A stretch of 64,000 bases of DNA. It comes from Syntrophorhabdaceae bacterium (GTDB taxonomy: Bacteria > Desulfobacterota > Syntrophorhabdia > Syntrophorhabdales > Syntrophorhabdaceae). Every line of letters starts with the position of its first letter. Position 1 is the first letter of the stretch. The translations under genes and the position numbers were made by a program. The stretch lies in assembly GCA_963665295.1 (NCBI GenBank), contig OY762209.1, positions 320,001 through 384,000 on the forward strand, written 5' to 3'. Positions 2 through 20,375 of this stretch are shown piece by piece. A model generated the notes under the pieces. That model searched no databases, had not been told where the DNA came from, and saw nothing but the letters and a program-made list of their open reading frames with translations.

Positions 2-892
2 TTTGCCGGACTTTTCACCATCATGCAAGGCCGTCCCGTCACGATCAGGACTCTCGACCCCCCGCTCCACGAGTTCCTGCCTCACGAGGAGAAGGATATC
101 CGGGACCTCGCTGCCAAGATGGGCATTACCTGCGAACGGCTCGAAGCTACGGTGGCCGGCCTCAGGGAAGAGAACCCCATGCTCGGTCTCAGGGGCTGCA
201 GGCTTGGCATCCTCTACCCCGAGATCACGGAGATGCAGGTCAGGGCCATATTCGAGGCCGCCTGCGACGTGAAGCGGTTGGGGATAGAGGTGAATCCCGA
301 AATCATGATACCCCTCGTGGGCGATGTGGCGGAATTGAGCCTTCAGGCCGGGGTAGTGGACCGGACGGCCAAAGAGGTCTTCGCGGAACGGGACATGGCA
401 ATCGATTACCGCGTGGGGACCATGATCGAAGTCCCAAGGGCGGCGCTGACGGCGGACGAAATTGCCGGACGGGCCGAGTTCTTCTCCTTCGGCACCAACG
501 ACCTGACCCAGACCACCTTTGGCATGAGCCGGGATGACGCGGGAAAATTCCTGCGCCTTTACGCGGAAAAGAATGTGCTCGACTACGACCCCTTCCAGCG
601 CATCGACGAAAGGGGCGTGGGAAAACTCATGAAGATGGGCGCCGAACTCGGACGGAGGACCCGTCCCAACCTGAAGATCGGCATATGCGGCGAGCACGGG
701 GGAGAGCCCAACTCAGTCAAGTTCTGCCACCGCATAGGGCTCAACTATGTGAGTTGCTCACCTTACCGTGTCACCACCGCGCGTCTGGCGGCAGCCCAGG
801 CGGCAATAGAAGAGAAGCGGGAGTCACGGGCAATCGACGAAGCGGACGGACAGGAGGATGCCGGGCTGAAGGCGGTGCGGGCCGCCCTTTGA
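2..892 (+). CDS. ppdK: Pyruvate phosphate dikinase, C-terminal part (5' truncated by window edge)
   Basis: Motifs [40 protein letters not shown] and [10 protein letters not shown] of the PEP-binding TIM barrel; frame is open from position 2. Confidence 0.95.
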
Positions 893-925
893 CAGGCGAG
901 AGAGCGGTCAAAGGAGGGTGACGGC

Positions 926-3900
926 CTACCGGTCGAGCACCTCGCGGATCTTCCGGAGAAGCGTCACCGGGGACAAGGGTTTGGCAATGAAGTCGATCTC
1001 CTTGTCCTCAATCCCTTTGTCGAGGATGATATCCCTGGTGTATCCGCTGGTAAAGATGACCCTGATATGAGGCCGCAGCCTGTGAATCTCTTCGTAAACC
1101 TCCCGTCCGTTCTTCTTGGGCATCACGGAGTCCACGATAATGAGGTCTATATCCTCGTGCTCCGTGAATTTCCGTATCGCATCTTCGCCGTCCACGGCCT
1201 CGATGGGCTTGTAGCCGTATTGCTGCAGTACATCCCGTATAAAGTGCCTTACCCCTTCATTGTCTTCGGCCACGAGAACCGTCTCCGTCCCCCCCTTGAC
1301 GGGGGCCGCCTTCGGTTCTTCCTGGTCGGCGGGTGCCTTTATTATGGGGAGATAGATGTGAAAGACAGCGCCCCTGTCCGGTTCGCTGTCCACGGTAATG
1401 TACCCGCCGTGCTGTTTCACGATGCCGTAAACGGTGGCAAGGCCGAGGCCGGTTCCCTTTCCCACCTCCTTCGTGGTGAAGAAGGGGTCGAAGATGTTCG
1501 CCAGCGTTGCCTCGTCCATGCCCGTTCCTGTATCGGACACGGTTAATTCCAAATATTTTCCCGGTTCCCCGAACCCTTGGGCCCTCATCAACTCGCCGCC
1601 TACCTCGACCACATCGGTCCCTATGAAGAGCGTTCCGCCGTTCGGCATGGCATCCCTTGCATTGGTGATGAGGTTGAAAAGTATCTGGTCCACCTGCGTC
1701 TTATCGGCCATGACCATGGCGCCGCCCGCGGCAAGGGACGTGCGCAGTTCTATATCCTCGGTAAGGAGCCTTTTGAGCAGTCTCTTCGTCCCTTTTATCG
1801 TCATGTTTATGTCAAGGGGGGCAAGGGCTACCGGTTGCTGCCTGCTAAAAGCAAGGAGGCCCTGGGTAAGGTCGGCCGCCTTCCGGGTAGCCAGGACAAT
1901 GGGCTCCACGTATGACATCAACGGGTCCGTCTTGTCCATGTTCATCTGGAGGAGACTGCTGTAACCGATGATCGCGGTGAGGATATTGTTGAAGTCGTGG
2001 GCGATGCCGCCTGCCAGGGTGCCTATGGCTTCCATCTTTTGAGCCTGGCGAAGCTGGGATTCGAGCAGCCGCAACTCGGTAATGTCCTCGCAGGCCGTCA
2101 GGAAGTCGCCGGAGGCGAGCACCGATGGAATGAAGCTCACGATCTTCTGGGTCCCATCCTTGCAGGTTACGGTAAAAACCCTCGGTTGCCGGGTTCCCGG
2201 CTTCGCAGTTCCCGAGTCCTTGATCCACGTGGATATCACGGTATGCCGGTATTCGGTATTCGGATAAGCCTTTCTGAACCATGTCCTCCCATCGGGGATT
2301 TCCGAGAGGTCAAACCCGAACAACTCTCTAAACTTGGGATTGATATAGGTAAACCGGCCGTTTTTGTCAACGAGGATCATCCCGAAGGGGGCATTGTCTG
2401 AGAGGGTCTTCAGCTTGTCCCTCTCCGCCTGTAGCGTCTGTTCGCTTCTATGGAGGGCCTCTTCCGCCTGTTTCCGGTCGGTAATGTCCCTCAGAAACAC
2501 CAGGCTGTCAAAGCTGCCTTTATACATGATCCTCGTTGCGGACACATCGAGGAACATGGTACTCCCGTCTTTCCTTACTCCCTTGAATTCGTAAGTCGAG
2601 GGGACATTGTCGCCACGCTGCCTTCTCCCGTTGATGTCGATGACCCGTTCCATATCGTCGGGGTGGACCGTGATGGAATGGGACTTGCCGAGTACCTCCC
2701 CGGCGTTGTCGAAACCGAACATATCGACAAATCTCTGATTCACGTATATATGCACACCTTCCCCAACGATCGCTATCCCGTCCCTCGAATGCTCGACTAC
2801 GGTCCGGTAACGCTCTTCAGACTCTTCCAGGGCTTCGATCGAGCGCTGGCGCTCGGTAATTTCGTGGGCAAAGATGGTTACTCCCGACACCTTTTTCTCC
2901 TCGTCAAAAAGAGGATAGCAATAGTGTTCGAAAGCCCTCCCGGACCTCGTGTCCTCGAAATAGACCGGTCCGCCCGTGGCAATGACCCTGCGGTGCCGTT
3001 CTTTCCGGCGCCGGGCCACGTCAGGCGGAAGATGGTCATAGAGACAGGTCCCCACAAGCTCCGGGACCGTCTTCCCCAACCTCTCGGCCCCTACCTCATT
3101 GCACAACATTACGGTGCCTTCCGTATCGATGAGCACCATACTTTCGTGGACGGCGTCGAAAAACGCCTGGAGCGTCCTTTCTCTCTCCTTCAGGGCCTCC
3201 GATGCACGCCTGTGATCGGTAACGTCGCGGATCGACTCGATAGCCCCTATAATCTCGCCCCTCTCGTCGCGAAGGGGGCTCGCCTTACCCCATAACGTCC
3301 TGCTTTGCCCTCGCACGCAGGGCACGTCCGTTTCGGTATAGAGCGTGTCCCCGTCCTTCTTTATGAATGAATACTTCTTCGCAAAATCATCATCCCACAT
3401 AAAGAGGAAGTCCATCAGGATCGGACGTCTCTCTCCGTAGAAGGGTATGGCGTATTCATAGTTTCCCTTGCCGAGCATCGATTCGGCGGAAAAACCCGTC
3501 ATCTCCTCGGTAGCCCTGTTCCATGAGATAATTTCCCCCTTAAGGTCCATGGCAAAGGTGGCGTCGGGCAGAAACTCGATGATGTTGGAAAGGAGGCTCT
3601 CGGAATTCTTCAGCGCCTCTTCGGCTTCCTTCTGTTCCGTGATGTCCCGGAAGATCCCCACGGCATGCCACCCGTCCCTGAACCGCTCGGCGGAAAGGGA
3701 CAAGGCCACGACAATCTCCCTGCCGTCTTTTCTGATGGCCTGCAATTCAACTGTCGTTCCCACCCCTTCTCTATGGCCGGTGCTCAGGAAACCGGGATAC
3801 GCGGCCCGGTACGCTTCATGATATCCCTCGGGTGCAACAAGCTCGTGCAGGTTCCGCCCCACGGCCTCGACACTCGAATAACCGAACATGCGTTCCGCGG

Positions 3901-4852
3901 CAGGGTTCCAGTACGATACCCTGCCCTCGGGGTCCATCATCAGGATGGCGTCACGGGAGCTTTTAAAGAGGGTCCGGAACCGCTCATCGCTCTCCCTTAG
4001 CGCCTCTTCGGTGTGCTTGCGCTCCGTAATGTCAAGGATGGCCCCGATGAGCCCGCTCACGGCCCCCTCACTGTCGGTGAGCGCCGCCTTGCTGAAGATC
4101 ACATAACGCAACTCGCCGAGGGCGTTCTTCATGAGGGACTCGTATTGCTGCACTCCTCCCCTCTCGAAAAGCTCGTCATCCTTGGCGCGGTAAATTTCTG
4201 CGAGGTCCCGGGAATAGAGGTCGAATACGGTCTTGCCTATGAGCCGTTCCCTCGATTCGCCGGAAAACACCTCGAAAGCCCTGTTGCAACCACGGTATCG
4301 TCCGTGCCCGTCCTTGTAGAAAACCGGAATAGGAATGCCGTCGAGAAGCGCATTGAGAAAGCCCTCGCTCTCCCGCAGCGCCTCTTCGGTACGCTTCCGT
4401 TCGGTGATGTCCCGGATAATGCCTGCAACCCCCACAATCTCGCCCTCCGCGATCACGGGAAACTTGTAGGTTTCAAAGAACCTGTCATCCACCGGTTCAA
4501 CAGCGGCCACGACCCGCTTCTCCCGGATGGCCAGTCGATCGCTCTCCTCGCATGCGGCAGCGGCTTCCCAGGGCATAAGCTCCTTGTCCGTCCTGCCCAG
4601 GATATCGGCCTCCCTGCATCCGAAGAACCGGGCGTTTGCGGAGTTGACCAATCGGTAGCGTAAATCGAGGTCTTTCAGAAAGAAGAAATCCGGACCCGCG
4701 TCGATGAGGAGCCGAAGTCGTTCCCTGGAGGATATGAGTTCTTCCTCCCTGCGCACGTGCTCGGCATCGGATCGTTCCAGTTCCTGAATTCTCTTCTTCA
4801 GGATGGATATCTCTTTGACCAGTTCGGCTTCTCTTCCGGATGGATCGTCCAT
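926..4852 (-). CDS. Multi-PAS hybrid sensor histidine kinase/response regulator
   Basis: About seven PAS/PAC repeats ending in DIT/DVT, HisKA QAQKMEAIGTLAGGIAHDFNN, HATPase DPFFTTK...GTGLGL, C-terminal receiver (VAEDN, DSVMP, KP). Confidence 0.93.
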   Translation of the reverse strand: MDDPSGREAELVKEISILKKRIQELERSDAEHVRREEELISSRERLRLLIDAGPDFFFLKDLDLRYRLVNSANARFFGCREADILGRTDKELMPWEAAAACEESDRLAIREKRVVAAVEPVDDRFFETYKFPVIAEGEIVGVAGIIRDITERKRTEEALRESEGFLNALLDGIPIPVFYKDGHGRYRGCNRAFEVFSGESRERLIGKTVFDLYSRDLAEIYRAKDDELFERGGVQQYESLMKNALGELRYVIFSKAALTDSEGAVSGLIGAILDITERKHTEEALRESDERFRTLFKSSRDAILMMDPEGRVSYWNPAAERMFGYSSVEAVGRNLHELVAPEGYHEAYRAAYPGFLSTGHREGVGTTVELQAIRKDGREIVVALSLSAERFRDGWHAVGIFRDITEQKEAEEALKNSESLLSNIIEFLPDATFAMDLKGEIISWNRATEEMTGFSAESMLGKGNYEYAIPFYGERRPILMDFLFMWDDDFAKKYSFIKKDGDTLYTETDVPCVRGQSRTLWGKASPLRDERGEIIGAIESIRDVTDHRRASEALKERERTLQAFFDAVHESMVLIDTEGTVMLCNEVGAERLGKTVPELVGTCLYDHLPPDVARRRKERHRRVIATGGPVYFEDTRSGRAFEHYCYPLFDEEKKVSGVTIFAHEITERQRSIEALEESEERYRTVVEHSRDGIAIVGEGVHIYVNQRFVDMFGFDNAGEVLGKSHSITVHPDDMERVIDINGRRQRGDNVPSTYEFKGVRKDGSTMFLDVSATRIMYKGSFDSLVFLRDITDRKQAEEALHRSEQTLQAERDKLKTLSDNAPFGMILVDKNGRFTYINPKFRELFGFDLSEIPDGRTWFRKAYPNTEYRHTVISTWIKDSGTAKPGTRQPRVFTVTCKDGTQKIVSFIPSVLASGDFLTACEDITELRLLESQLRQAQKMEAIGTLAGGIAHDFNNILTAIIGYSSLLQMNMDKTDPLMSYVEPIVLATRKAADLTQGLLAFSRQQPVALAPLDINMTIKGTKRLLKRLLTEDIELRTSLAAGGAMVMADKTQVDQILFNLITNARDAMPNGGTLFIGTDVVEVGGELMRAQGFGEPGKYLELTVSDTGTGMDEATLANIFDPFFTTKEVGKGTGLGLATVYGIVKQHGGYITVDSEPDRGAVFHIYLPIIKAPADQEEPKAAPVKGGTETVLVAEDNEGVRHFIRDVLQQYGYKPIEAVDGEDAIRKFTEHEDIDLIIVDSVMPKKNGREVYEEIHRLRPHIRVIFTSGYTRDIILDKGIEDKEIDFIAKPLSPVTLLRKIREVLDR

Positions 4853-5261
4853 CAGGCCTCCCTATGGTGGTAAACGACGCAACAACAAACCAGAGAATTG
4901 TCCCACGCACGAAACAGTCAACCTGCGAACCGCGGGCACACACCTTTCATTGTATACAAAGCAAGTTCGAGATGTAGCCCTCACTACATATTATATCGGA
5001 TAATTCCTGCATATGGTTTAGAAAAAAAACACCCCGGGAACTCCGTTATCGTCCACCGAAGACCACTATGAGTCTCCAGCGGGCCAACCTTCCTGTGCCG
5101 CCTCGCAGCAGGCCTTGGGGACGGGAACAATCGGGGCGAAAACCAGGATTCGCCCGAAAAGCGGGGCAAGGGACCAAAGAGCCGTCGTCATCATAATTCC
5201 TCTGCATTATCCGGACTGGTGTAGTATACTTTTAGTGATAGAAGGAATCTTAGGGGCGACA

Positions 5262-7610: not shown

Positions 7611-8393
7611 TCAGTCCTTGTCCGGCGCAGGCGCCTGACCCCGCTCTTCCTTTGGGACGATGAGGCCTTCCGACACCCGGTGCAGGGCATCGAGGAATCG
7701 GGCATAAAGCCCTTCTTCCTGTTCCTTGCCCAGGGCTGTTTCCGCGTCCCGGAGCCCGTGCAACTCGCGAAGCATTTCCGGACTGAGACCGAACTGGTGG
7801 GCGAAGGCCTCGATGATGTTCTTCTCGCTCCCGTAATTGCCGCCTCTCGCGGACAACAGGATTTCGAGGGTTTCGAAGAAGCGCTTCGCCTGTTGGGCCA
7901 TGATGGCGGTGAGTTGCTGCCCGTTGTTCACAAGGTAATGACGCCGCATTCTGAGCAACATATTCATGAGGCGCTGGCGGATACGGAGAAGGGCATAGTC
8001 CGTTTTCACTTCCAGGTCCGCCAGGAAGTCTATTCCATAAAGGAGTCTGTACCGGTTCTTCATGGCCATATACTTGAGCGGAAAGATATCGACGGTGGCA
8101 CGGACGTCCTCCTCGGTGAGAAAGAAGGGCGCAAGGCTTCCCTTCCGTCCTCGCGCCACAGGCTCAACAAGCTCCTTTAAGGCGGAGAGGTCGATCCGGT
8201 CGACGAGGATGAGCAGGTTCACGTCGCTCCTGCCCGGACGATAGGCTTCCGACGTTGCGCTTCCGTACAGGATTGCCGACTTGACGGACCCGTGCGGGAG
8301 GCCCCTCAGTGCGGAGAGAAGTTCCTCCAGGGCACCCCTTTCCTCTTCTCCCAGCTTCGTTCCTGTCAGTGCGCCATCACGTAATGAATTCAT
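7611..8393 (-). CDS. Nucleotidyltransferase-fold (Pol beta superfamily) protein
   Basis: ILYGSA...SDVNLLILV (GS...DxD-like motif with Asn in place of the second Asp) followed by a helical domain; ATG 8393 with GAGGGA upstream. Confidence 0.75.
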   Translation of the reverse strand: MNSLRDGALTGTKLGEEERGALEELLSALRGLPHGSVKSAILYGSATSEAYRPGRSDVNLLILVDRIDLSALKELVEPVARGRKGSLAPFFLTEEDVRATVDIFPLKYMAMKNRYRLLYGIDFLADLEVKTDYALLRIRQRLMNMLLRMRRHYLVNNGQQLTAIMAQQAKRFFETLEILLSARGGNYGSEKNIIEAFAHQFGLSPEMLRELHGLRDAETALGKEQEEGLYARFLDALHRVSEGLIVPKEERGQAPAPDKD

Positions 8394-8420
8394 TTTTTCC
8401 CTCTCTTGTGTCACGGATAA

Positions 8421-9503
8421 TCACCCGCAACCCCCGTTCGCCGCGGCCCGGGGCACGTTCTCCTCCCTCCGGCGGGCCAACCAGCATCCCGGATCGGCGC
8501 AAAACGGTGAGCCGGTCATGGCGTGGGACAGGCATCTAAGCCCGCCCCGGCAGACTTCTGCGTAAAAACATTCCCCACAGCCCTCGGCGATCCGGTCCCT
8601 CTCCCGGAGGCTCACGAGGAAATCACTTTCGCCATACAGCCGGGCAAGGGGGGCGCTCATGACATTCCCTATGGGAACCGCCATTCTTCTGCACGGGTAG
8701 AGGGTGCCGTCCGCCCCAAGGGCGAGAAGGGTGCCTCCTGCCCCGCAGCGATAGGGCTCACCCCCGCCCACGATGAACTGGAGAGCGCGGCCCATGGCTA
8801 TCTCCGTGTGTCCAAGCCATGATCTTTCCGCCTTTTCTCTGGCCTTTTGCAGTATTTCAAAAAACTCTTTTGTCTCTTCGGGAGAAAGGGCCTTATCCGC
8901 CATGGCGGCGCCTCCGCCTGCGGGAATCAAGCGGTCCGCCCACACCCGCGCCACGCCGAGCTTGGTCCCTGCGTCGGCCACTTCTTTGAATTCCCGGTAG
9001 TTATCCTTGTGCGCCGTGAAAGAGATGTAGGCCCTCAACTTCTCTTTGCGTAAACAATCCACGCCGCGGAGGACCCGTTCAAAATCTCCCTTTCCCCTTA
9101 TCCTGTCATGGGTGGTCTTTCCGCCCTCCATGCTGACCTGAACGAAGGCCGGTTTCAACACCCTGAGACGGACTGCCGTTGCCTTGTCCAGAAAACTGCC
9201 GTTGCACAGGATCGCAAAGCTGAAGGTATCCCTGTGAGCCGACAGGGCCTCGAGGAAGGGAATAAAGTCTTCCCTCATGAAAGGTTCGCCGCCCGTGACA
9301 TTGATGTGTCCCCGCCTGATAGCCCGGGCCGCAAGGAGTTGCCTGTATTGTTCCACGACTTCGAGGAGTTCGCCGAACTTCAGCTCGGGGCCGGAATAGG
9401 TTTCCTGGTAACAGTGGCTGCACCGAAGATTGCAGCGATCCGTGACGTGCCATTGAAGGAGCAGCCTTCCCGGCCTTACGGGTCTTTTTCCCTTGTCTTT
9501 CAT
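8421..9503 (-). CDS. Radical SAM enzyme with SPASM domain
   Basis: QWHVTDRCNLRCSHCY (CxxxCxxC), TGGEP, QVSMEG; SPASM cysteines CGAG...GTLYPC...CGECFYAEVCRGGLRC...DPGC; start at MKDKGK (9503). Confidence 0.92.
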   Translation of the reverse strand: MKDKGKRPVRPGRLLLQWHVTDRCNLRCSHCYQETYSGPELKFGELLEVVEQYRQLLAARAIRRGHINVTGGEPFMREDFIPFLEALSAHRDTFSFAILCNGSFLDKATAVRLRVLKPAFVQVSMEGGKTTHDRIRGKGDFERVLRGVDCLRKEKLRAYISFTAHKDNYREFKEVADAGTKLGVARVWADRLIPAGGGAAMADKALSPEETKEFFEILQKAREKAERSWLGHTEIAMGRALQFIVGGGEPYRCGAGGTLLALGADGTLYPCRRMAVPIGNVMSAPLARLYGESDFLVSLRERDRIAEGCGECFYAEVCRGGLRCLSHAMTGSPFCADPGCWLARRREENVPRAAANGGCG

Positions 9504-9523
9504 CACCCGGTCCTGGTAGTCTC

Positions 9524-10483
9524 TCAGCCACCGCATCCGCCGCACCCTCCTCCGCACCCTCCTCCGCATCCGCCGCCGCCGCAACCACTTCCCCCGCAAC
9601 CGCCCCCTCCGACGGAGTCGCCCGACGTCCATCCGCTGCACCCTCCGCAGGACCAGCCTGAGGGCCTGTGGAAAGCCGCCTGGTATGCCCCGTATCCGTG
9701 GGCAGCCCCGAGGACCGCGGGACCGAACACGGCAACGGCGAAGGCCGGGTCTATCCCCGTCAGGGCGCCTCTTTTTGCCTTCTCCCTGACCCACCCGAAA
9801 TCCGTGGCCAGTTTATCGAGGTACTTCTTCCCGAGGCACGAGATCTGTGACCACGGTCTGAGTGACAGGGCAAGAACGACCACGGATGCGATCAATAAGA
9901 GAAAGAGAAGGGACACGGGTTTTCCCCGTGCCAAGCCTAAGTGTATCTTGATCAAGCCGGGCAGGAGCATCACCACCAGGACCGCCGCCGAGACAAGGCG
10001 GCCCCTCGTCATATCGGGACCGGTCTTCATGAGGCGCAGTTCCGTCAACTCCCGCGCCGCCAACCGGAGGTGGGGATCCAGGTTTTCCTTCAATTCCGCC
10101 GACCGGAAAAGTTCGGATGATTTCCTCTTCCTGTCCAGGAACCGGTAAATTATGCGTGTCTCGGGTTTGAGGCTTCTCATCTTCATGGACAGTTCAATCT
10201 TTCCCGCTCCCCCTTGTGTGAGGGTTACGCCGGCGCCCGCCCCGCTTACCACGACCAGGCCTTTGTGCCAGAGTTGGAAGACCGCCGACCTGATGACGCC
10301 GGGATAACCTGCCCTGAGGTAAGACAAGGATATCGGATCCAGACGGGTAAGGTCCGGCATGGGATACTCCAGGCTGCTGTCCGCGCGAAGCCGCCATCGG
10401 CCTATCAGGACGCAGAGCGCAACAAACCCCGCGTAATAAAAAAGAAACAAGGGACCCGGTATCAGCCTGATCATTTCAATCAC
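9524..10483 (-). CDS. TIGR04222-like membrane protein with Gly/Cys low-complexity C-terminal tail
   Basis: GPLFLFYYA N-terminal TM, LDPISLSYLRAG...AVFQL, central TM pair with KIHLGLARGKPV.LL, AVAVFG, tail GWSCGGCSGW...GGGGCGGSGCGGGGCGGGCGGGCGGCGG; GTG 10483 follows GAGGA. Confidence 0.85.
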   Translation of the reverse strand: MIEMIRLIPGPLFLFYYAGFVALCVLIGRWRLRADSSLEYPMPDLTRLDPISLSYLRAGYPGVIRSAVFQLWHKGLVVVSGAGAGVTLTQGGAGKIELSMKMRSLKPETRIIYRFLDRKRKSSELFRSAELKENLDPHLRLAARELTELRLMKTGPDMTRGRLVSAAVLVVMLLPGLIKIHLGLARGKPVSLLFLLLIASVVVLALSLRPWSQISCLGKKYLDKLATDFGWVREKAKRGALTGIDPAFAVAVFGPAVLGAAHGYGAYQAAFHRPSGWSCGGCSGWTSGDSVGGGGCGGSGCGGGGCGGGCGGGCGGCGG

Positions 10484-10683: not shown

Positions 10684-10733
10684 TTGACAAATCCGCGCAG
10701 GGGGAATAAGTTTAATACTGACCGTACGGTATT
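10684..10733 (+). promoter_or_regulatory. Sigma70-like promoter with downstream palindromic operator (likely TetR autoregulation)
   Basis: TTGACA(10684)-N17-TAAGTT; perfect palindrome ACCGTACGGT (10721-10730) inside ATACTGACCGTACGGTAT. Confidence 0.6.
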
Positions 10734-10747
10734 CATGGGAGGTTTTA

Positions 10748-11389
10748 GTGAAGAGAGCGGGTGGTATAGAGACAGAGGAGAAGATCATACAGGCAGCCCT
10801 GGAACTTTTCGTGCGTAAAGGGTATCACGGTACGTCCATCACCGACATCATGAACAAGGTTGGGCTATCCAAGGGCTCCCTGTATGCCCACTTCAAGAGT
10901 AAAGGGGAACTCCTGCTGCGGATTATCGATGGATACAAGGTAAGATACCTTGACGAGATGACTCGCCTTGCGAAGGATGGTGAAGGAGATGCCCTCGACA
11001 AGCTCCACCAGTGCATCAGCTTCAGCGCCCGATTCGCGGCCGAGCACCAGAGCCTGTGCGGATTCCTGATATGCATCACCACAGAGCTGAAGGCGGATAT
11101 TGAGTTCGAGCCGGTGCTCAAGGCCGTCAACCACCACTACCAGAGACTGTTCAGCGGGATCATACGCCAGGGGATTACTCAGGGTGTAGTGGACAAAGGA
11201 ACAGACCCGGGTATGGCCGCTTTGACTTTCATGGCTCTCCATGGCGGAATGCTGCATCAATGGGCTCTTAACCGGAATATGATCGATGCGGGGGAGTATG
11301 TGAGAACCTTCCGAAAGACGTTCATTTACGGCCTGGCAAGCGATAAGGGAAGGAATATGTGCGATGAAAGGACATGGCGATCGAGGTGA
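10748..11389 (+). CDS. TetR/AcrR family transcriptional regulator
   Basis: IIQAALELFVRKGYHGTSITDIMNKVGLSKGSLYAHFKSKGELL HTH; SD GGAGG. Confidence 0.93.
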   Translation: MKRAGGIETEEKIIQAALELFVRKGYHGTSITDIMNKVGLSKGSLYAHFKSKGELLLRIIDGYKVRYLDEMTRLAKDGEGDALDKLHQCISFSARFAAEHQSLCGFLICITTELKADIEFEPVLKAVNHHYQRLFSGIIRQGITQGVVDKGTDPGMAALTFMALHGGMLHQWALNRNMIDAGEYVRTFRKTFIYGLASDKGRNMCDERTWRSR

Positions 11390-12345: not shown

Positions 12346-14388
12346 ATGAAGAAAGATGTAGCGGCAGTCTGTTTCGCCTCCGTGAAGCTGTTTGTTCTTG
12401 CCCTTCTCATTATGGGCATGTCGGGAACGGCGGTTTTTGCGGCTACCTACACCATATCAGGCACCATAAAAGCATCGGGCACAGGGCTCGCGGGTGTCAC
12501 CGTTGCCCTTTCAGGTACGGCAAGCTCCTCCACCACCACGGACAGCAGCGGCGCGTACAGTTTTTCGGGCCTGTCGAAGGGCAGCTATACCGTGACGCCG
12601 ACCATGGACAAGTACACATTCAGTCCCGCGAAGAAGACAGTGACCATCAATTCTTCGGATTCCAAGGGAAACAACTTCACCGCCAAGTCCTCGGTCCACG
12701 TCTTATCGGGCACCATAAAGGCATCGGGCACAGGGCTCGCGGGTGTCACCGTTGCCCTTTCAGGTACGGCAAGCTCCTCCACGACCACGGACAGCAGCGG
12801 CGCGTACAGTTTTTCGGGCCTGTCGAAGGGCAGCTATACCGTGACGCCGACCATGGGCGGATACACATTCAGTCCCGTGAAGAAAACGGTGACCATCAAT
12901 TCTTCGGATTCCAAGGGAAACAACTTCACCGCCAAGTCCTCGGTCCACATCATATCAGGCACCATCAAGGCATCGGGCACAGGGCTCGCGGGTGTCACCG
13001 TTGCCCTTTCAGGTACGGCAAGCTCCTCCACCACCACCACGGACAGCAGCGGCGCGTACAGTTTTTCGGGCCTATCGAAGGGCAGCTATACCGTGACGCC
13101 GACCATGGGCGGATACACATTCAGTCCCGTGAAGAAGACGGTGAACATCAATTCTTCGGATTCCAAGGGAAACAACTTCACCGCCAAATGGAAAGTGACG
13201 GCATATTATCAAAACGGCGGAACGGCGGTAAAGACCGGTCAGGCCTATGGATCGACCACAGACGATGAGTCGGGCGTGGAAGTGATCAATTCCGGCGTGT
13301 TGAACCTTTCCTACTCCACGGTTACCACGAAGGGCAACACGTCCTCCCCCGATGACAGCAGCTTCTACGGTCTCAATGCCGGTGTTCTCGCCACATCCGC
13401 GAGCGCCATCAACCTCTCGAATGTCACCGTCTCCACCACGGGCATAGGGGCCAACGGCGTCTTTGCCACAGGGGAGGGAACGACGATCACCCTCGACAAT
13501 GTGACCATAAACTGCACGGGTCAGTTGGGCCACGGCGTCGATGCCACTCTTGGCGGCACGCTTATCCTCAATGACGTGGATATCACTACCGGGCCCGGGG
13601 CAAATTCAGCGGCCATCGCCACGGACCGGGGGAGCGGCACCATCACCGTGACAGGGGGCACCATGACCACCTCCGGGACCGATGCGCCCGGTATCTATTC
13701 CACGGGAGTCATCACCGTTACGGGCTCCGCCATCAGCGCCACCGAATCGGAGGCCGCCGTCATTGAAGGGTCAAACTCTATTGTCCTCACCAATACGACC
13801 CTCTCCGGAGGAAAGAAGCGGGGAGTCATGATCTACCAGAGTATGTCCGGCGATGCCGACGGTTCGGAAGGCACTTTCACCATGACCGGAGGCTCCCTGT
13901 CCGCCTCCGTGGGTCCCCTCTTTTACGTCACCAACGCCACGGGGACAATCTCTCTTGCGGACGTTGCGGCATCGGCCGCTTCCGGCACCCTTATCAACGC
14001 GGCCGCCGACACCTGGGGCACAAGCGGCAGTAACGGCGGGACAGTGGTGTTTACGGGCACAAGCCAGGTCCTGAGCGGCAATATTGTTGCCGACAACATC
14101 AGTTCCGTAGCCCTCACCCTGCAAACGGCATCCTCGCTCCAGGGCACGATCAACGCGGGGGATACTGCCAAGGCAGTAAATGTTACCCTGGATTCCACGA
14201 GCAGTTGGACGGTGACGGCAAATTCCTATATCACCTGTCTCTCTGATACGGACGGAATCTCCGGCACCGCCGTCAACAACGTGCACGCCTCCTCCGGCAT
14301 CACGGTTTACTACAGCAACGCTTCCTGCGCCGCCCTCGGCGGAAAGACATACACCCTGAACGGCGGTGGTTCCCTGGTGCCGCGATGA
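12346..14388 (+). CDS. Secreted/surface protein: three carboxypeptidase-regulatory-like (Cna-B/SdrD-like) repeats plus beta-helix region
   Basis: Signal peptide ending AVFA; three ~83-aa repeats ISGTIKASGTGLAGVTVALSG...TTDSSGAYSF..L..GSYTVTP; Gly/Thr/Ser-rich autotransporter-passenger-like C-terminal half. Confidence 0.8.
   Translation: MKKDVAAVCFASVKLFVLALLIMGMSGTAVFAATYTISGTIKASGTGLAGVTVALSGTASSSTTTDSSGAYSFSGLSKGSYTVTPTMDKYTFSPAKKTVTINSSDSKGNNFTAKSSVHVLSGTIKASGTGLAGVTVALSGTASSSTTTDSSGAYSFSGLSKGSYTVTPTMGGYTFSPVKKTVTINSSDSKGNNFTAKSSVHIISGTIKASGTGLAGVTVALSGTASSSTTTTDSSGAYSFSGLSKGSYTVTPTMGGYTFSPVKKTVNINSSDSKGNNFTAKWKVTAYYQNGGTAVKTGQAYGSTTDDESGVEVINSGVLNLSYSTVTTKGNTSSPDDSSFYGLNAGVLATSASAINLSNVTVSTTGIGANGVFATGEGTTITLDNVTINCTGQLGHGVDATLGGTLILNDVDITTGPGANSAAIATDRGSGTITVTGGTMTTSGTDAPGIYSTGVITVTGSAISATESEAAVIEGSNSIVLTNTTLSGGKKRGVMIYQSMSGDADGSEGTFTMTGGSLSASVGPLFYVTNATGTISLADVAASAASGTLINAAADTWGTSGSNGGTVVFTGTSQVLSGNIVADNISSVALTLQTASSLQGTINAGDTAKAVNVTLDSTSSWTVTANSYITCLSDTDGISGTAVNNVHASSGITVYYSNASCAALGGKTYTLNGGGSLVPR
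12451..13188 (+). repeat. Three near-identical 249-bp tandem direct repeats
   Basis: Units start at about 12451, 12700 and 12949; the third has one extra Thr codon. Confidence 0.9.
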
Positions 14389-18535: not shown

Positions 18536-20020
18536 CTACCTCCCTCCGTCAGGTCTCCCCTGCGGCTGTTGGTGTTGCTGTCCCTGGTGTTGCTGCCCCT
18601 GAGGCGGTCTCTGAGGCTGCTGCCCCTGAGGCTGCCTTTGAGGCTGCTGAGCCTGGGGCGGTCTCTGAGGCTGAGTCTGTGGTGGTCTTTGAGGCTGAGC
18701 CTGAGGTTGGACCTGAGGCGGTCTTTGAGGTTGCTGAGCCTGAGGCGGTCTTTGAGGTTGCTGAGCCTGGGGCGGTCTCTGAGGCTGAGTCTGTGGTGGT
18801 CTTTGAGGCTGAGCCTGAGGTTGGACCTGAGGCGGTCTTTGAGGTTGCTGAGCCTGAGGCGGTCTCTGAGGTTGAGCCTGTGGTTGGACCTGAGGCTGCC
18901 TTTGAGGTTGCTGAGCCTGGGGCGGTCTCTGAGGCTGAGTCTGTGGTTGGACCTGAGGCTGGGACGGTCTCTGAGGTTGCTGAGCCTGAGGCGGTCTTTG
19001 AGGCTGAGTCTGTGGTTGGACCTGAGGCTGATTACCCTGAGGCTGCCTTTGAGGGTGTTGTCCCTGGGGCTGCCTTTGAGGCTGATTACCCTGAGGCTGA
19101 ACCTGGGGCTGTCCCTGAGGTTTATGTCCTTGTGGCTGTCCCTGAGGCTGATGTCCCTGGGGTGGCCTTTGAGGGTGTTGTCCCTGAGGCTGTCCCTGGA
19201 ATTGTCCCTGAGGCTGGTGTCCTTGTGGCGGACGTCCCTGAGGCTGGTGTCCTTGTGGCGGACGTCCCTGAGGCTGGTGCCCCTGGAATTGTCCCTGAGG
19301 CTGGTGTCGCTGAATATCGGGCCTCTGTCGATATTCCTGCTCCCTTTGCAGCCTTAGTTCCTGTCTCTGTTGTTGCGGCCGAGGGCGATAACCCTGGACA
19401 CCCCAGGTTCCTTGCCTTTCCCAATGTCGGTCATTATGCCAGCTCCGCCAGTTGTGCTCAAGCTGCCGGTTAGGAATCCGTTCATAATTCCACCGGTGCC
19501 CATACCAATCATGGCTTCTGTAGTGTCCTCTCCAACCCGGGTCTACATCGAAATAGAAAGTCGGAACCCGGTTATAATAACCCCAGCCCCTATTGTAATG
19601 GGGCGAACGATACCAGCGACCTTCCCATAGACGCCACCAGAAACCGTTCCAGAAAAACAGGTCTGCGTCTACATCAGGCGCAACATACACGCCGCTCGCG
19701 TCGGGCACTACTATCACGTCCGGAGGTGCTTGAATTGCGATCGGCGGCGGCAAAGGAGCAGGTACTCCGGCTCCGGACCCCCCCGTCCCTTGTACGCCCG
19801 TTGCGGCCGGCGGCAATTCCTGTGCGGGAGTTGTCGCTGCCGTCGGTTCCTGGGCCGGAATCCCCCCTGCCGTCGGTTCCTGGGCGGGAGTCCCTGCTGC
19901 CGCTGGGTCCTGTGCGGGTGTTTCCGCGGGTTTCGCCGGCTCCTGCGATCGGTTGCAGCCGATCAAGGTAAAGGTCGCAAGCAACGTCGCCGCTGCAAAT
20001 AACACTATTAACTTCTTCAT
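18536..20020 (-). CDS. Putative lipoprotein with Trp/Tyr/Arg-rich domain and long Gln/Pro repeat tail
   Basis: SD AAGGAGG; MKKLIVLFAAATLLATFTLIGC lipobox; TPAQE-type repeats; FFWNGFWWRLWEGRWYRS domain; ~260 aa of QPQ/RPPQ repeats. Confidence 0.8.
   Translation of the reverse strand: MKKLIVLFAAATLLATFTLIGCNRSQEPAKPAETPAQDPAAAGTPAQEPTAGGIPAQEPTAATTPAQELPPAATGVQGTGGSGAGVPAPLPPPIAIQAPPDVIVVPDASGVYVAPDVDADLFFWNGFWWRLWEGRWYRSPHYNRGWGYYNRVPTFYFDVDPGWRGHYRSHDWYGHRWNYERIPNRQLEHNWRSWHNDRHWERQGTWGVQGYRPRPQQQRQELRLQREQEYRQRPDIQRHQPQGQFQGHQPQGRPPQGHQPQGRPPQGHQPQGQFQGQPQGQHPQRPPQGHQPQGQPQGHKPQGQPQVQPQGNQPQRQPQGQHPQRQPQGNQPQVQPQTQPQRPPQAQQPQRPSQPQVQPQTQPQRPPQAQQPQRQPQVQPQAQPQRPPQAQQPQRPPQVQPQAQPQRPPQTQPQRPPQAQQPQRPPQAQQPQRPPQVQPQAQPQRPPQTQPQRPPQAQQPQRQPQGQQPQRPPQGQQHQGQQHQQPQGRPDGGR
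18560..19310. repeat. Low-complexity coding tandem repeat array
   Basis: Many ctgaggctg / gaggttgctgagcctg units; ~100-bp block duplicated at 114-bp spacing (18651 and 18765). Confidence 0.9.
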
Positions 20021-20375
20021 GTAATTTCCCCTCCTTATCTCTTTCTGTCTCTTTGGTGAAGGCTTTGTTCTCGCGCCAAACCGGTGCGAGAAGCAAAATA
20101 CCGTCACCCGATCCGGCGGGACGGGCGAACGAAAACCCTTTACAGTATCCCTTTCATCTCTACAAAGGATCGGCGCGGGGTCAAGGGGGAGGGACATTTT
20201 TTCATCCAGTGTATTCTCATTCACCGGACCACTGAGCCAGCCTTTCCGACTGCCGTCTCCTTATACTGTATTATCAGAAATATGCCGTCAAATTACAACA
20301 ATTATTGTGTTCGGGCTTTTTGCGGAAAGGCCGCGGTGGAACCCGAAGGGGCCCTCGGAGAGGGAACTTGAGAAA

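Follow-up and report, generated by a model that had tools for sequence, protein, structure and literature searches.

A radical SAM/SPASM enzyme clade linked to Gly/Cys tails of TIGR04222 membrane proteins: a candidate protein-tail maturation system

The window analyzed here is a 64,000-nucleotide stretch of a Syntrophorhabdaceae bacterium genome (contig OY762209.1, positions 320,001 to 384,000), and our subject is an operon of three minus-strand genes within it. These encode, in order, a TIGR04222 membrane protein ending in a Gly/Cys tail, a radical S-adenosylmethionine (SAM) enzyme with a SPASM domain, and a third protein of nucleotidyltransferase-like appearance (Table 1). An earlier note, made from the sequence alone, had proposed that the enzyme modifies the tail; the close same-strand spacing to which it pointed is confirmed by the coordinates, with intergenic gaps of 20 and 27 nt. 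For the first gene the GTG at 10483 has the better ribosome-binding site, and the ATG at 10474 gives the 316-residue protein on which our numbering is based. For the third gene an alternative GTG at 8414 would reduce the second gap to 6 nt; a purine-rich ribosome-binding site favors the ATG at 8393. In the host genome (5.5 Mb, one contig), the TIGR04222 gene, the clade enzyme, and the terminal Gly/Cys tail are each single-copy. A crude screen of this genome yielded no separate short precursor open reading frame (ORF), in agreement with the note, and the operon is devoid of genes for a short precursor, a peptidase, a transporter, or a recognition element (RRE) of peptides that are made by ribosomes and modified after translation (RiPPs). 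Promoter and terminator scans at the locus gave results at chance level.

Table 1 Features of the operon (positions in the window).
Feature	Position	Strand	Basis
TIGR04222 membrane protein	9524..10483	-	TIGR04222 profile, hydrophobic segments, homology to the DUF2207 membrane part
Gly/Cys tail, residues 273-316, proposed substrate	9527..9658	-	8 Cys, five GGCG motifs
Predicted enzyme-docking patch, residues 224-241 after TM3 (with residues 41 and 43)	9752..9805	-	Complex model
Radical SAM/SPASM enzyme, 360 aa, RRE-less, no named family	8421..9503	-	Profiles, fold model
CxxxCxxC motif, C24/C28/C31	9411..9434	-	Sequence motif
SPASM domain: C253, C271, C309, C312, C318, C324, C340	8484..8747	-	TIGR04085, alignment
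Nucleotidyltransferase-fold protein (putative), 260 aa, optional third component	7611..8393	-	Homologues, Atlas clusters

The first protein passes the TIGR04222 model, as had been expected (90.5 bits against a cut-off of 43, residues 13-255), and has three clear hydrophobic segments (about 8-25, 160-180, and 186-205) and a marginal fourth (243-258) followed by the tail. The tail is exactly as quoted in the note, 44 residues with 8 Cys and 2 Trp; it also holds 26 Gly and five GGCG motifs and qualifies as a low-complexity Gly/Ser/Cys C-terminus. The terminal GGCGGCG columns are at least 90% conserved in an alignment (A2) whose rows were partly selected for the tail. Homology links the TIGR04222 family with the membrane part of DUF2207 (hhalign 98.5%, E 2e-15, 80 columns), and the Atlas contained only hypothetical clusters for the membrane protein. 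More than a quarter of the TIGR04222 family is without such Cys according to PMC12452194.

The second gene encodes a CxxxCxxC radical SAM enzyme, as had been read: the three Cys of the motif are present and Pfam Radical_SAM PF04055 scores 78.4 bits (cut-off 29.5). It also passes the SPASM model TIGR04085 (40.4 against 27), but the "full" SPASM set that had been claimed turned out to be one of seven conserved Cys with unusual spacing, compared with eight in SbtM. The CxxC-x5-C-x5-C spacing recurs in 76 of 78 clade members (score of at least 400 bits), and R272-R273 stand directly after the auxiliary cluster I (AuxI) Cys. The enzyme falls below the cut-off of the best 25 of 76 matched NCBIfam families, with SbtM (TIGR04082, 142.5 of 350 bits) at the top. 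No RRE was found in the structure model or the homologue alignment; the model, with a predicted local distance difference test (pLDDT) score of 87, matched SkfB, CteB, PqqE, SuiB, and anSME in Foldseek at 15-23% identity. The best 120 homologues are 52-97% identical to the enzyme, and in all 120 the CxxxCxxC motif begins by residue 51. A search with the single protein returned one close relative only; alignment and motif scans found the wider family. The enzyme profile gave 1162 matches at E <=1e-30 among 8000 candidates scored, some of them outside the clade, and in a FastTree of 194 rows (every second low-scoring row omitted) the clade comprises 94 rows with a support of 98. Its distribution is patchy (3 of 61 genomes, host included). 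The enzyme belongs to a distinct RRE-less radical SAM/SPASM clade, outside every named family compared.

Starting from the enzyme, a Gly/Cys-ending ORF lies within 3 kb at 49 of 64 clade loci obtained by a motif scan of GTDB, five of these loci being repeat contigs of an earlier scan; 12 loci have none and 3 lie at a contig edge. The same rule was satisfied by 8 of 142 radical SAM loci outside the clade, and four of these 8 look like real related cases. Loci were assigned in or out of the clade by profile score, and 9 were moved out by hand, following the tree. Within the 94-row clade, 76 rows are tail-linked (67 to a tailed protein, 9 to a short ORF), versus 3 tailed among 90 non-SbtM rows outside it. 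Across 401 genomes of the window's phylum (host included; at most four enzyme candidates scored per genome), 6 carry the enzyme and 5 carry TIGR04222, and all 5 TIGR04222 genes adjoin the enzyme; with the host excluded, 4 of 4 are adjacent versus about 0.05 expected by chance, the kin not being independent. In the sixth enzyme-bearing genome, a 73-residue precursor with a Gly/Cys core is located directly upstream of the enzyme. When enzyme-adjacent TIGR04222 proteins were collected with a tail-free profile, 52 of 56 rows ended in a GGC tail and the other 4 were split-gene pieces. Among ten orphan enzyme loci, 6 genomes hold TIGR04222 elsewhere, always Cys-tailed (once with a single Cys). The enzyme-tail linkage is far above chance and the pairing recurs across many bacteria and archaea; the neighborhood analysis suggested in the earlier note links the closest radical SAM homologues to Cys-tailed TIGR04222 genes. 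One genome (G451) carries four tandem TIGR04222 paralogues with differing tails (L392, L394-L396) far from the one clade enzyme found by motif scan, an arrangement that suggests action in trans.

The tail also occurs on carriers other than TIGR04222, namely DUF2207, TPM, zinc-ribbon, and TPR-fused proteins; the carrier at L061 was considered as a TPM protein and rejected, being TIGR04222. At four loci (L193, L223, L235, and L249), the gene directly upstream of a clade enzyme encodes a short precursor that has a GCGCG core and, in its leader, a YxxPxV motif. The L223 cluster includes two PqqD genes, an S24-like peptidase gene, a second radical SAM gene, and an HPr-kinase-like gene, and the L193 cluster also has an NTP_transf_5 gene and a methyltransferase gene. 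PqqD/RRE domains bind YxxP-type leaders. These short-precursor clusters represent an uncharacterized RiPP family; the L193 precursor is entered as "Other Uncharacterized, Singleton" in the supplement of PMC10288494. The tail, rather than the carrier, is the constant partner of the enzyme.

The enzyme gene next to the tail varies as well. In the MNIO-TIGR04222 loci of Antoine et al. (2025, PMC12452194), the same membrane family with a Cys/Gly/Ser tail adjoins a gene for an MNIO iron enzyme (DUF692, PF05114), and modification was proposed there. Our tail-first scan gave at least 121 matches, 80 with flanks, and after removal of one duplicate left 46 loci at which an ORF of at least 100 residues ends in the tail. 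Among the matches listed, to which all tail-first counts refer, the tail is followed by an MNIO at 20 of the 46 loci (Pfam identified 6 of these, clustering and a local profile the others), a clade enzyme flanks it at 4, and both do so at none. TIGR04222-first searches in four other phyla (7/161, 10/151, 6/71, and 2/151 genomes) gave 32 matches, one open fragment being left out. The 19 Cys-rich proteins include 11 that flank an MNIO and 4 that flank a radical SAM gene, 2 of the latter in seed genomes chosen for radical SAM; among 12 Cys-poor matches (3 below cut-off), 3 flank an MNIO. An MNIO profile search of the host genome (98% complete) gave no match, and MNIO was likewise not found in the nine other clade-bearing genomes searched. 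A TIGR04222 tree of 92 rows requires 6 changes of the MNIO label, at least 3 of them forced by strong branches, which fits repeated enzyme swapping.

A third enzyme type was found in the same position at L433 (3245-6658, G606), where genes for a nucleotidyltransferase-like protein, a TIGR04222 protein, and an SbtM-family enzyme form one translationally coupled operon, with a 1-base overlap at the TIGR04222 stop. This enzyme scores 458 bits against the SbtM cut-off of 350, is 48-53% identical to six SbtM proteins, groups with SbtM (support 100), and lacks the SbtM N-terminal domain. The enzyme slot is interchangeable, being held by MNIO, by the clade enzyme, and once by an SbtM-family enzyme, and the radical SAM enzyme is likely an oxygen-independent stand-in for the MNIO that partners the same tail elsewhere.

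The product of the third gene has no Pfam match and its comparison with solved structures was uninformative (best E 0.06). Homologues and Atlas clusters point to a degenerate nucleotidyltransferase fold with a G-S...S-D-x-N motif, in which Asn takes the place of the second Asp (DxN versus DxD; 97% of 33 homologues); catalysis is probably altered or absent. Among the homologues scored, one narrowly passes Polbeta and NTP_transf_2, three fall below cut-off, and two are without a match; in the Atlas clusters, PF01909 appears in 14-30% of members. The gene is present in 25 of 64 clade loci and in 12 of the 46 tail-first loci (9 of the 20 with MNIO and 3 with radical SAM), and its product most likely serves the membrane protein as a non-essential partner. 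In PMC12452194 an adjamnio-II family of similar size is described under another Pfam name, and we do not equate it with this protein.

The genes, their motifs, the conserved linkage, and the interchange of carriers and enzymes are observed. Judging from these comparisons, it is very probable that the tail Cys are the substrate and that the tail is modified. As to the chemistry, in the SbtM/SbtA thio(seleno)oxazole system the enzyme SbtM targets the Gly-Cys of a GGUG motif with a loss of 4 Da by abstraction of a Cys C-beta hydrogen, and the resulting thiooxazole absorbs at 304 nm and remains iodoacetamide-reactive (PMC9204691); MNIOs related to the TIGR04222-adjacent ones use oxygen to form 5-thiooxazoles on bufferin-type peptides. 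At six catalytic-site positions, chosen by the scheme of PMC10288494 and mapped through CteB, the clade reads YTLSRR (70 of 78), SbtM reads Y[TS]LSRK (10 of 10), and CteB reads FFTSHQ. The window enzyme resembles SbtM, whose substrate is SbtA, in its radical SAM/SPASM architecture, its best NCBIfam match, five of six catalytic-site residues, and the Gly-Cys substrate motif, and one SbtM-family gene stands behind a TIGR04222 tail at L433, the best single test case for thiooxazole formation on such a tail. By analogy, the enzyme probably works like SbtM yet is no SbtM member, and we lean, by a small degree, toward Gly-Cys thiooxazole formation on the tail. In this proposal a 5'-deoxyadenosyl radical would take a hydrogen from the Cys C-beta, the preceding Gly carbonyl would close the ring, and two rounds would give -4 Da per Cys, leaving a tethered thiooxazole tail predicted to bind metal. 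With a thiooxazole favored (-4 Da, about 304 nm, alkylatable), the readout suggested in the earlier note, -2 Da losses and alkylation-resistant Cys alone, would miss the product.

The findings that weigh against this reading concern the linkage, the chemistry, and the fate of the tail. With respect to linkage, neither enzyme lies within 3.5 kb at 22 of the 46 tail-first loci (some contigs being short), 12 of the first 80 tail matches listed look SlyD-type (by eye; one checked, 134 of 174 bits) and are enzyme-less, 4 of the 19 Cys-rich TIGR04222 proteins from the four other phyla have neither MNIO nor radical SAM beside them, and no TIGR04222 was found in 4 of the 10 genomes with orphan enzymes. 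Some clade members match MftC, ACGX, or TIGR04053 best. MNIO and clade enzyme occur together at one locus (L205) among 118 higher-scoring enzyme loci, and the SbtM-type arrangement of L433 is a single case in 91 related genomes, the other 90 of which gave no further SbtM-type/TIGR04222 locus. The enzyme-less tails would be expected if the tail were an unmodified metal-binding segment like that of SlyD, a peptidyl-prolyl isomerase, and the enzyme were co-regulated, acted elsewhere, or used the membrane protein as an anchor. The same explanation would accommodate the modeled interface, which is on the folded domain, and three loci (L190, L212, and L242) where the usual substrate position upstream of the radical SAM gene is taken by a small membrane ORF whose end is rich in Asp and free of Cys, but these three genomes hold Cys-tailed TIGR04222 elsewhere. 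Moreover, three unrelated types of peptide-modifying enzyme occupy one slot, the same core is found on short free precursors with a leader motif and PqqD, and none of the 12 Cys-poor TIGR04222 matches flanks a radical SAM gene; we therefore consider an unmodified tail quite unlikely.

Two observations stand beside these. The L205 locus (620-5061) encodes a 785-residue MNIO-PqqD fusion and two Gly/Cys-ending precursors, divergent from the clade radical SAM gene. The host genome itself encodes a SlyD-like protein (by eye) with a Cys-bearing tail (G000:C1:4000957-4001583), a natural control for an unmodified tail.

With respect to chemistry, the enzyme is 27-29% identical to SbtM and not its sister in either tree, its SPASM domain has seven Cys like CteB and not eight as in SbtM, and it is without the 190-residue N-terminal domain of SbtM. 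Orthology to SbtM was rejected on account of the separate supported clades, the score below the family cut-off, and the differing SPASM Cys. YTLSRR also occurs among more distant enzymes (26 of 42), the majority of which have no tail neighbor, and hence marks a wider subfamily. The tail could instead be modified by thioether crosslinks from Cys sulfur to Gly/Ser C-alpha, giving small unnested rings as in type 2 sactipeptides and stapling the CGGC/CGGGC ladder. The thioether maturases CteB, SkfB, PapB, GggB, and QmpB share the fold, a seven-Cys SPASM domain (in CteB, as here, with one Cys ahead of the PC motif, unlike SbtM), and a Cys-rich substrate; SkfB and CteB are the top sequence and fold matches among solved structures, and GggB and QmpB produce small unnested sactionine rings (PMC9389541). 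However, only one of the six catalytic-site residues is shared with CteB, identity to the solved SPASM structures is 15-23% (SbtM did not appear among these matches), the PapB and StsB models give 96.5 of 340 and 84.2 of 625 bits, far below the family cut-offs, there is no RRE, and the alternative holders of the slot are thiooxazole-forming families. Thioether formation thus appears unlikely, though less so than an unmodified tail.

The earlier note had also allowed for C-C crosslinks. The two Trp of the window's tail would permit a cyclophane or Lys-Trp type of linkage, but Trp is not conserved: of 56 tails adjoining the enzyme only 11 contain it, and the short precursor cores lack it altogether; we rejected Trp crosslinking and regard it as extremely improbable.

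Modeled as a complex, the enzyme and the membrane protein scored 0.74, whereas the best of three controls scored 0.22. Of 157 solved complexes 116 attain the mark applied, as do 2 of 215 mismatched pairs, figures that are rough here, given our own alignments and ligands riding along; runs agreed in at least 25% of contacts and the partner pLDDT was at least 74. Confident contacts join enzyme residues 243-249, 313-317, and 342 with membrane protein residues 41, 43, 224-228, and 239-241. The enzyme is likely to dock on the predicted cytoplasmic domain of the membrane protein; the tail residues, in contrast, lie outside the confident contacts, a further point on the unfavorable side. The interface residues do not cleanly split radical SAM-partnered from MNIO-partnered proteins (W228 43% versus 0%, F226 79% versus 60%), and we give this comparison no weight as evidence. 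The idea of a membrane-anchored leader or scaffold gains support from this model, but the enzyme family does not depend on the membrane domain, since other carriers and short precursors also bear the tail. For the window's operon, it is rather probable that the folded domain of the membrane protein would replace the missing RRE/leader system.

Positive charge follows TM1 and the third transmembrane segment (TM3), with 4.9 K/R versus 1.4 D/E in the 20 residues past TM3 (mean of 92 rows). Two homologues (L102 and L066) have a signal-peptide-like start ahead of an added domain, to be read with the DUF2207 homology. Both lines suggest that the N-terminus is outside and that the large loop and the domain after TM3 are in the cytoplasm. 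The marginal segment 243-258 is the weakest by a rough hydrophobicity estimate (5.0 versus -1.5, 1.9, and -4.4; loop control 8.0); it could carry the tail outside, matching the periplasmic tail predicted in PMC12452194, which runs counter to the cytoplasmic leaning here. On balance, the tail is probably cytoplasmic, or modified before membrane crossing.

Since the operon has no peptidase, the modified tail would stay on the membrane protein, where it may, as a tentative suggestion, buffer or sense a soft metal such as copper; no conserved metal-homeostasis neighbor was found around these loci, which does not favor this role. In three related genomes (L388-L390), TIGR04222 lies directly downstream of a Fur-like gene (by eye), a possible metal link. 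Alternatively, the tail could be modified, then cleaved and released as a small RiPP, with the membrane protein as a true leader or export aid. The same-clade short-precursor version with an S24-like peptidase (L223) offers a precedent, but neither a peptidase nor a transporter gene is present in the operon or recurrent beside the tail-first loci, and the sequence ahead of the tail shows no conserved cleavage motif; release is improbable.

Taken with the known systems, the locus is apparently a real, conserved, and seemingly undescribed protein-tail maturation system. Unlike in the MNIO-TIGR04222 clusters, the slot is held by an unrelated, oxygen-independent radical SAM enzyme in a genome where no MNIO was found. 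"SPASM" and "rSAM" are absent from the main text and the searched spreadsheet portions of PMC12452194, whose supplementary PDF and gene-organization figure could show a radical SAM neighbor, and a literature search, with most subscription papers outside its reach, gave no description of a TIGR04222-radical SAM pairing. Unlike the short selenocysteine precursor SbtA, the proposed substrate is a Cys-bearing membrane protein. In the bufferins and captophorins, MNIO-made 5-thiooxazole copper chelators (10.1101/2025.11.18.689057), repeated Cys motifs losing 4 H would yield the same heterocycle; unlike the window's operon, however, bufferins are secreted, depend on an oxygen-dependent enzyme, and have a DUF2063 partner.

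The findings provide a large uncharacterized radical SAM clade with a concrete candidate substrate, and the short, soluble precursors that belong to this clade make it directly testable whether TIGR04222 tails are modified. Should the product prove to be a thiooxazole, the same heterocycle would be placed on one tail by either of two unrelated enzyme families, according to oxygen; full-length membrane proteins would be added to the reach of RiPP chemistry; and an enzyme that needs no leader and recognizes a short Gly-Cys tag could serve protein labeling. More broadly, and with somewhat less confidence than in the thiooxazole itself, GGCGGCG might be a portable maturation tag on unrelated membrane proteins and short leaders, read by interchangeable MNIO or oxygen-independent enzymes converging on poly-thiooxazole, and providing anaerobic bacteria and archaea with a membrane-tethered chelator or sensor of metal in the cytoplasm.

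Tails or short ORFs rich in Cys and Gly also lie beside radical SAM genes of other lineages that fall outside the clade (L032, L042, L055, L066, and L436). Next to the operon, a perfect 10-bp palindrome (10721-10730), possibly an operator, lies just upstream of a divergent TetR gene (10748-11389); the closest homologous operon (L247) has no adjoining TetR. Elsewhere in the window, the plus-strand gene at 12346-14388 encodes a secreted protein whose three SdrD_B/carboxypeptidase-regulatory-like repeats are nearly identical and whose C-terminal region is rich in Thr and Gly. A minus-strand ORF at 18536-20224, with no Pfam match, starts like a lipoprotein, has a middle part rich in Trp, Tyr, and Arg, and ends in a long tail of Gln/Pro repeats.

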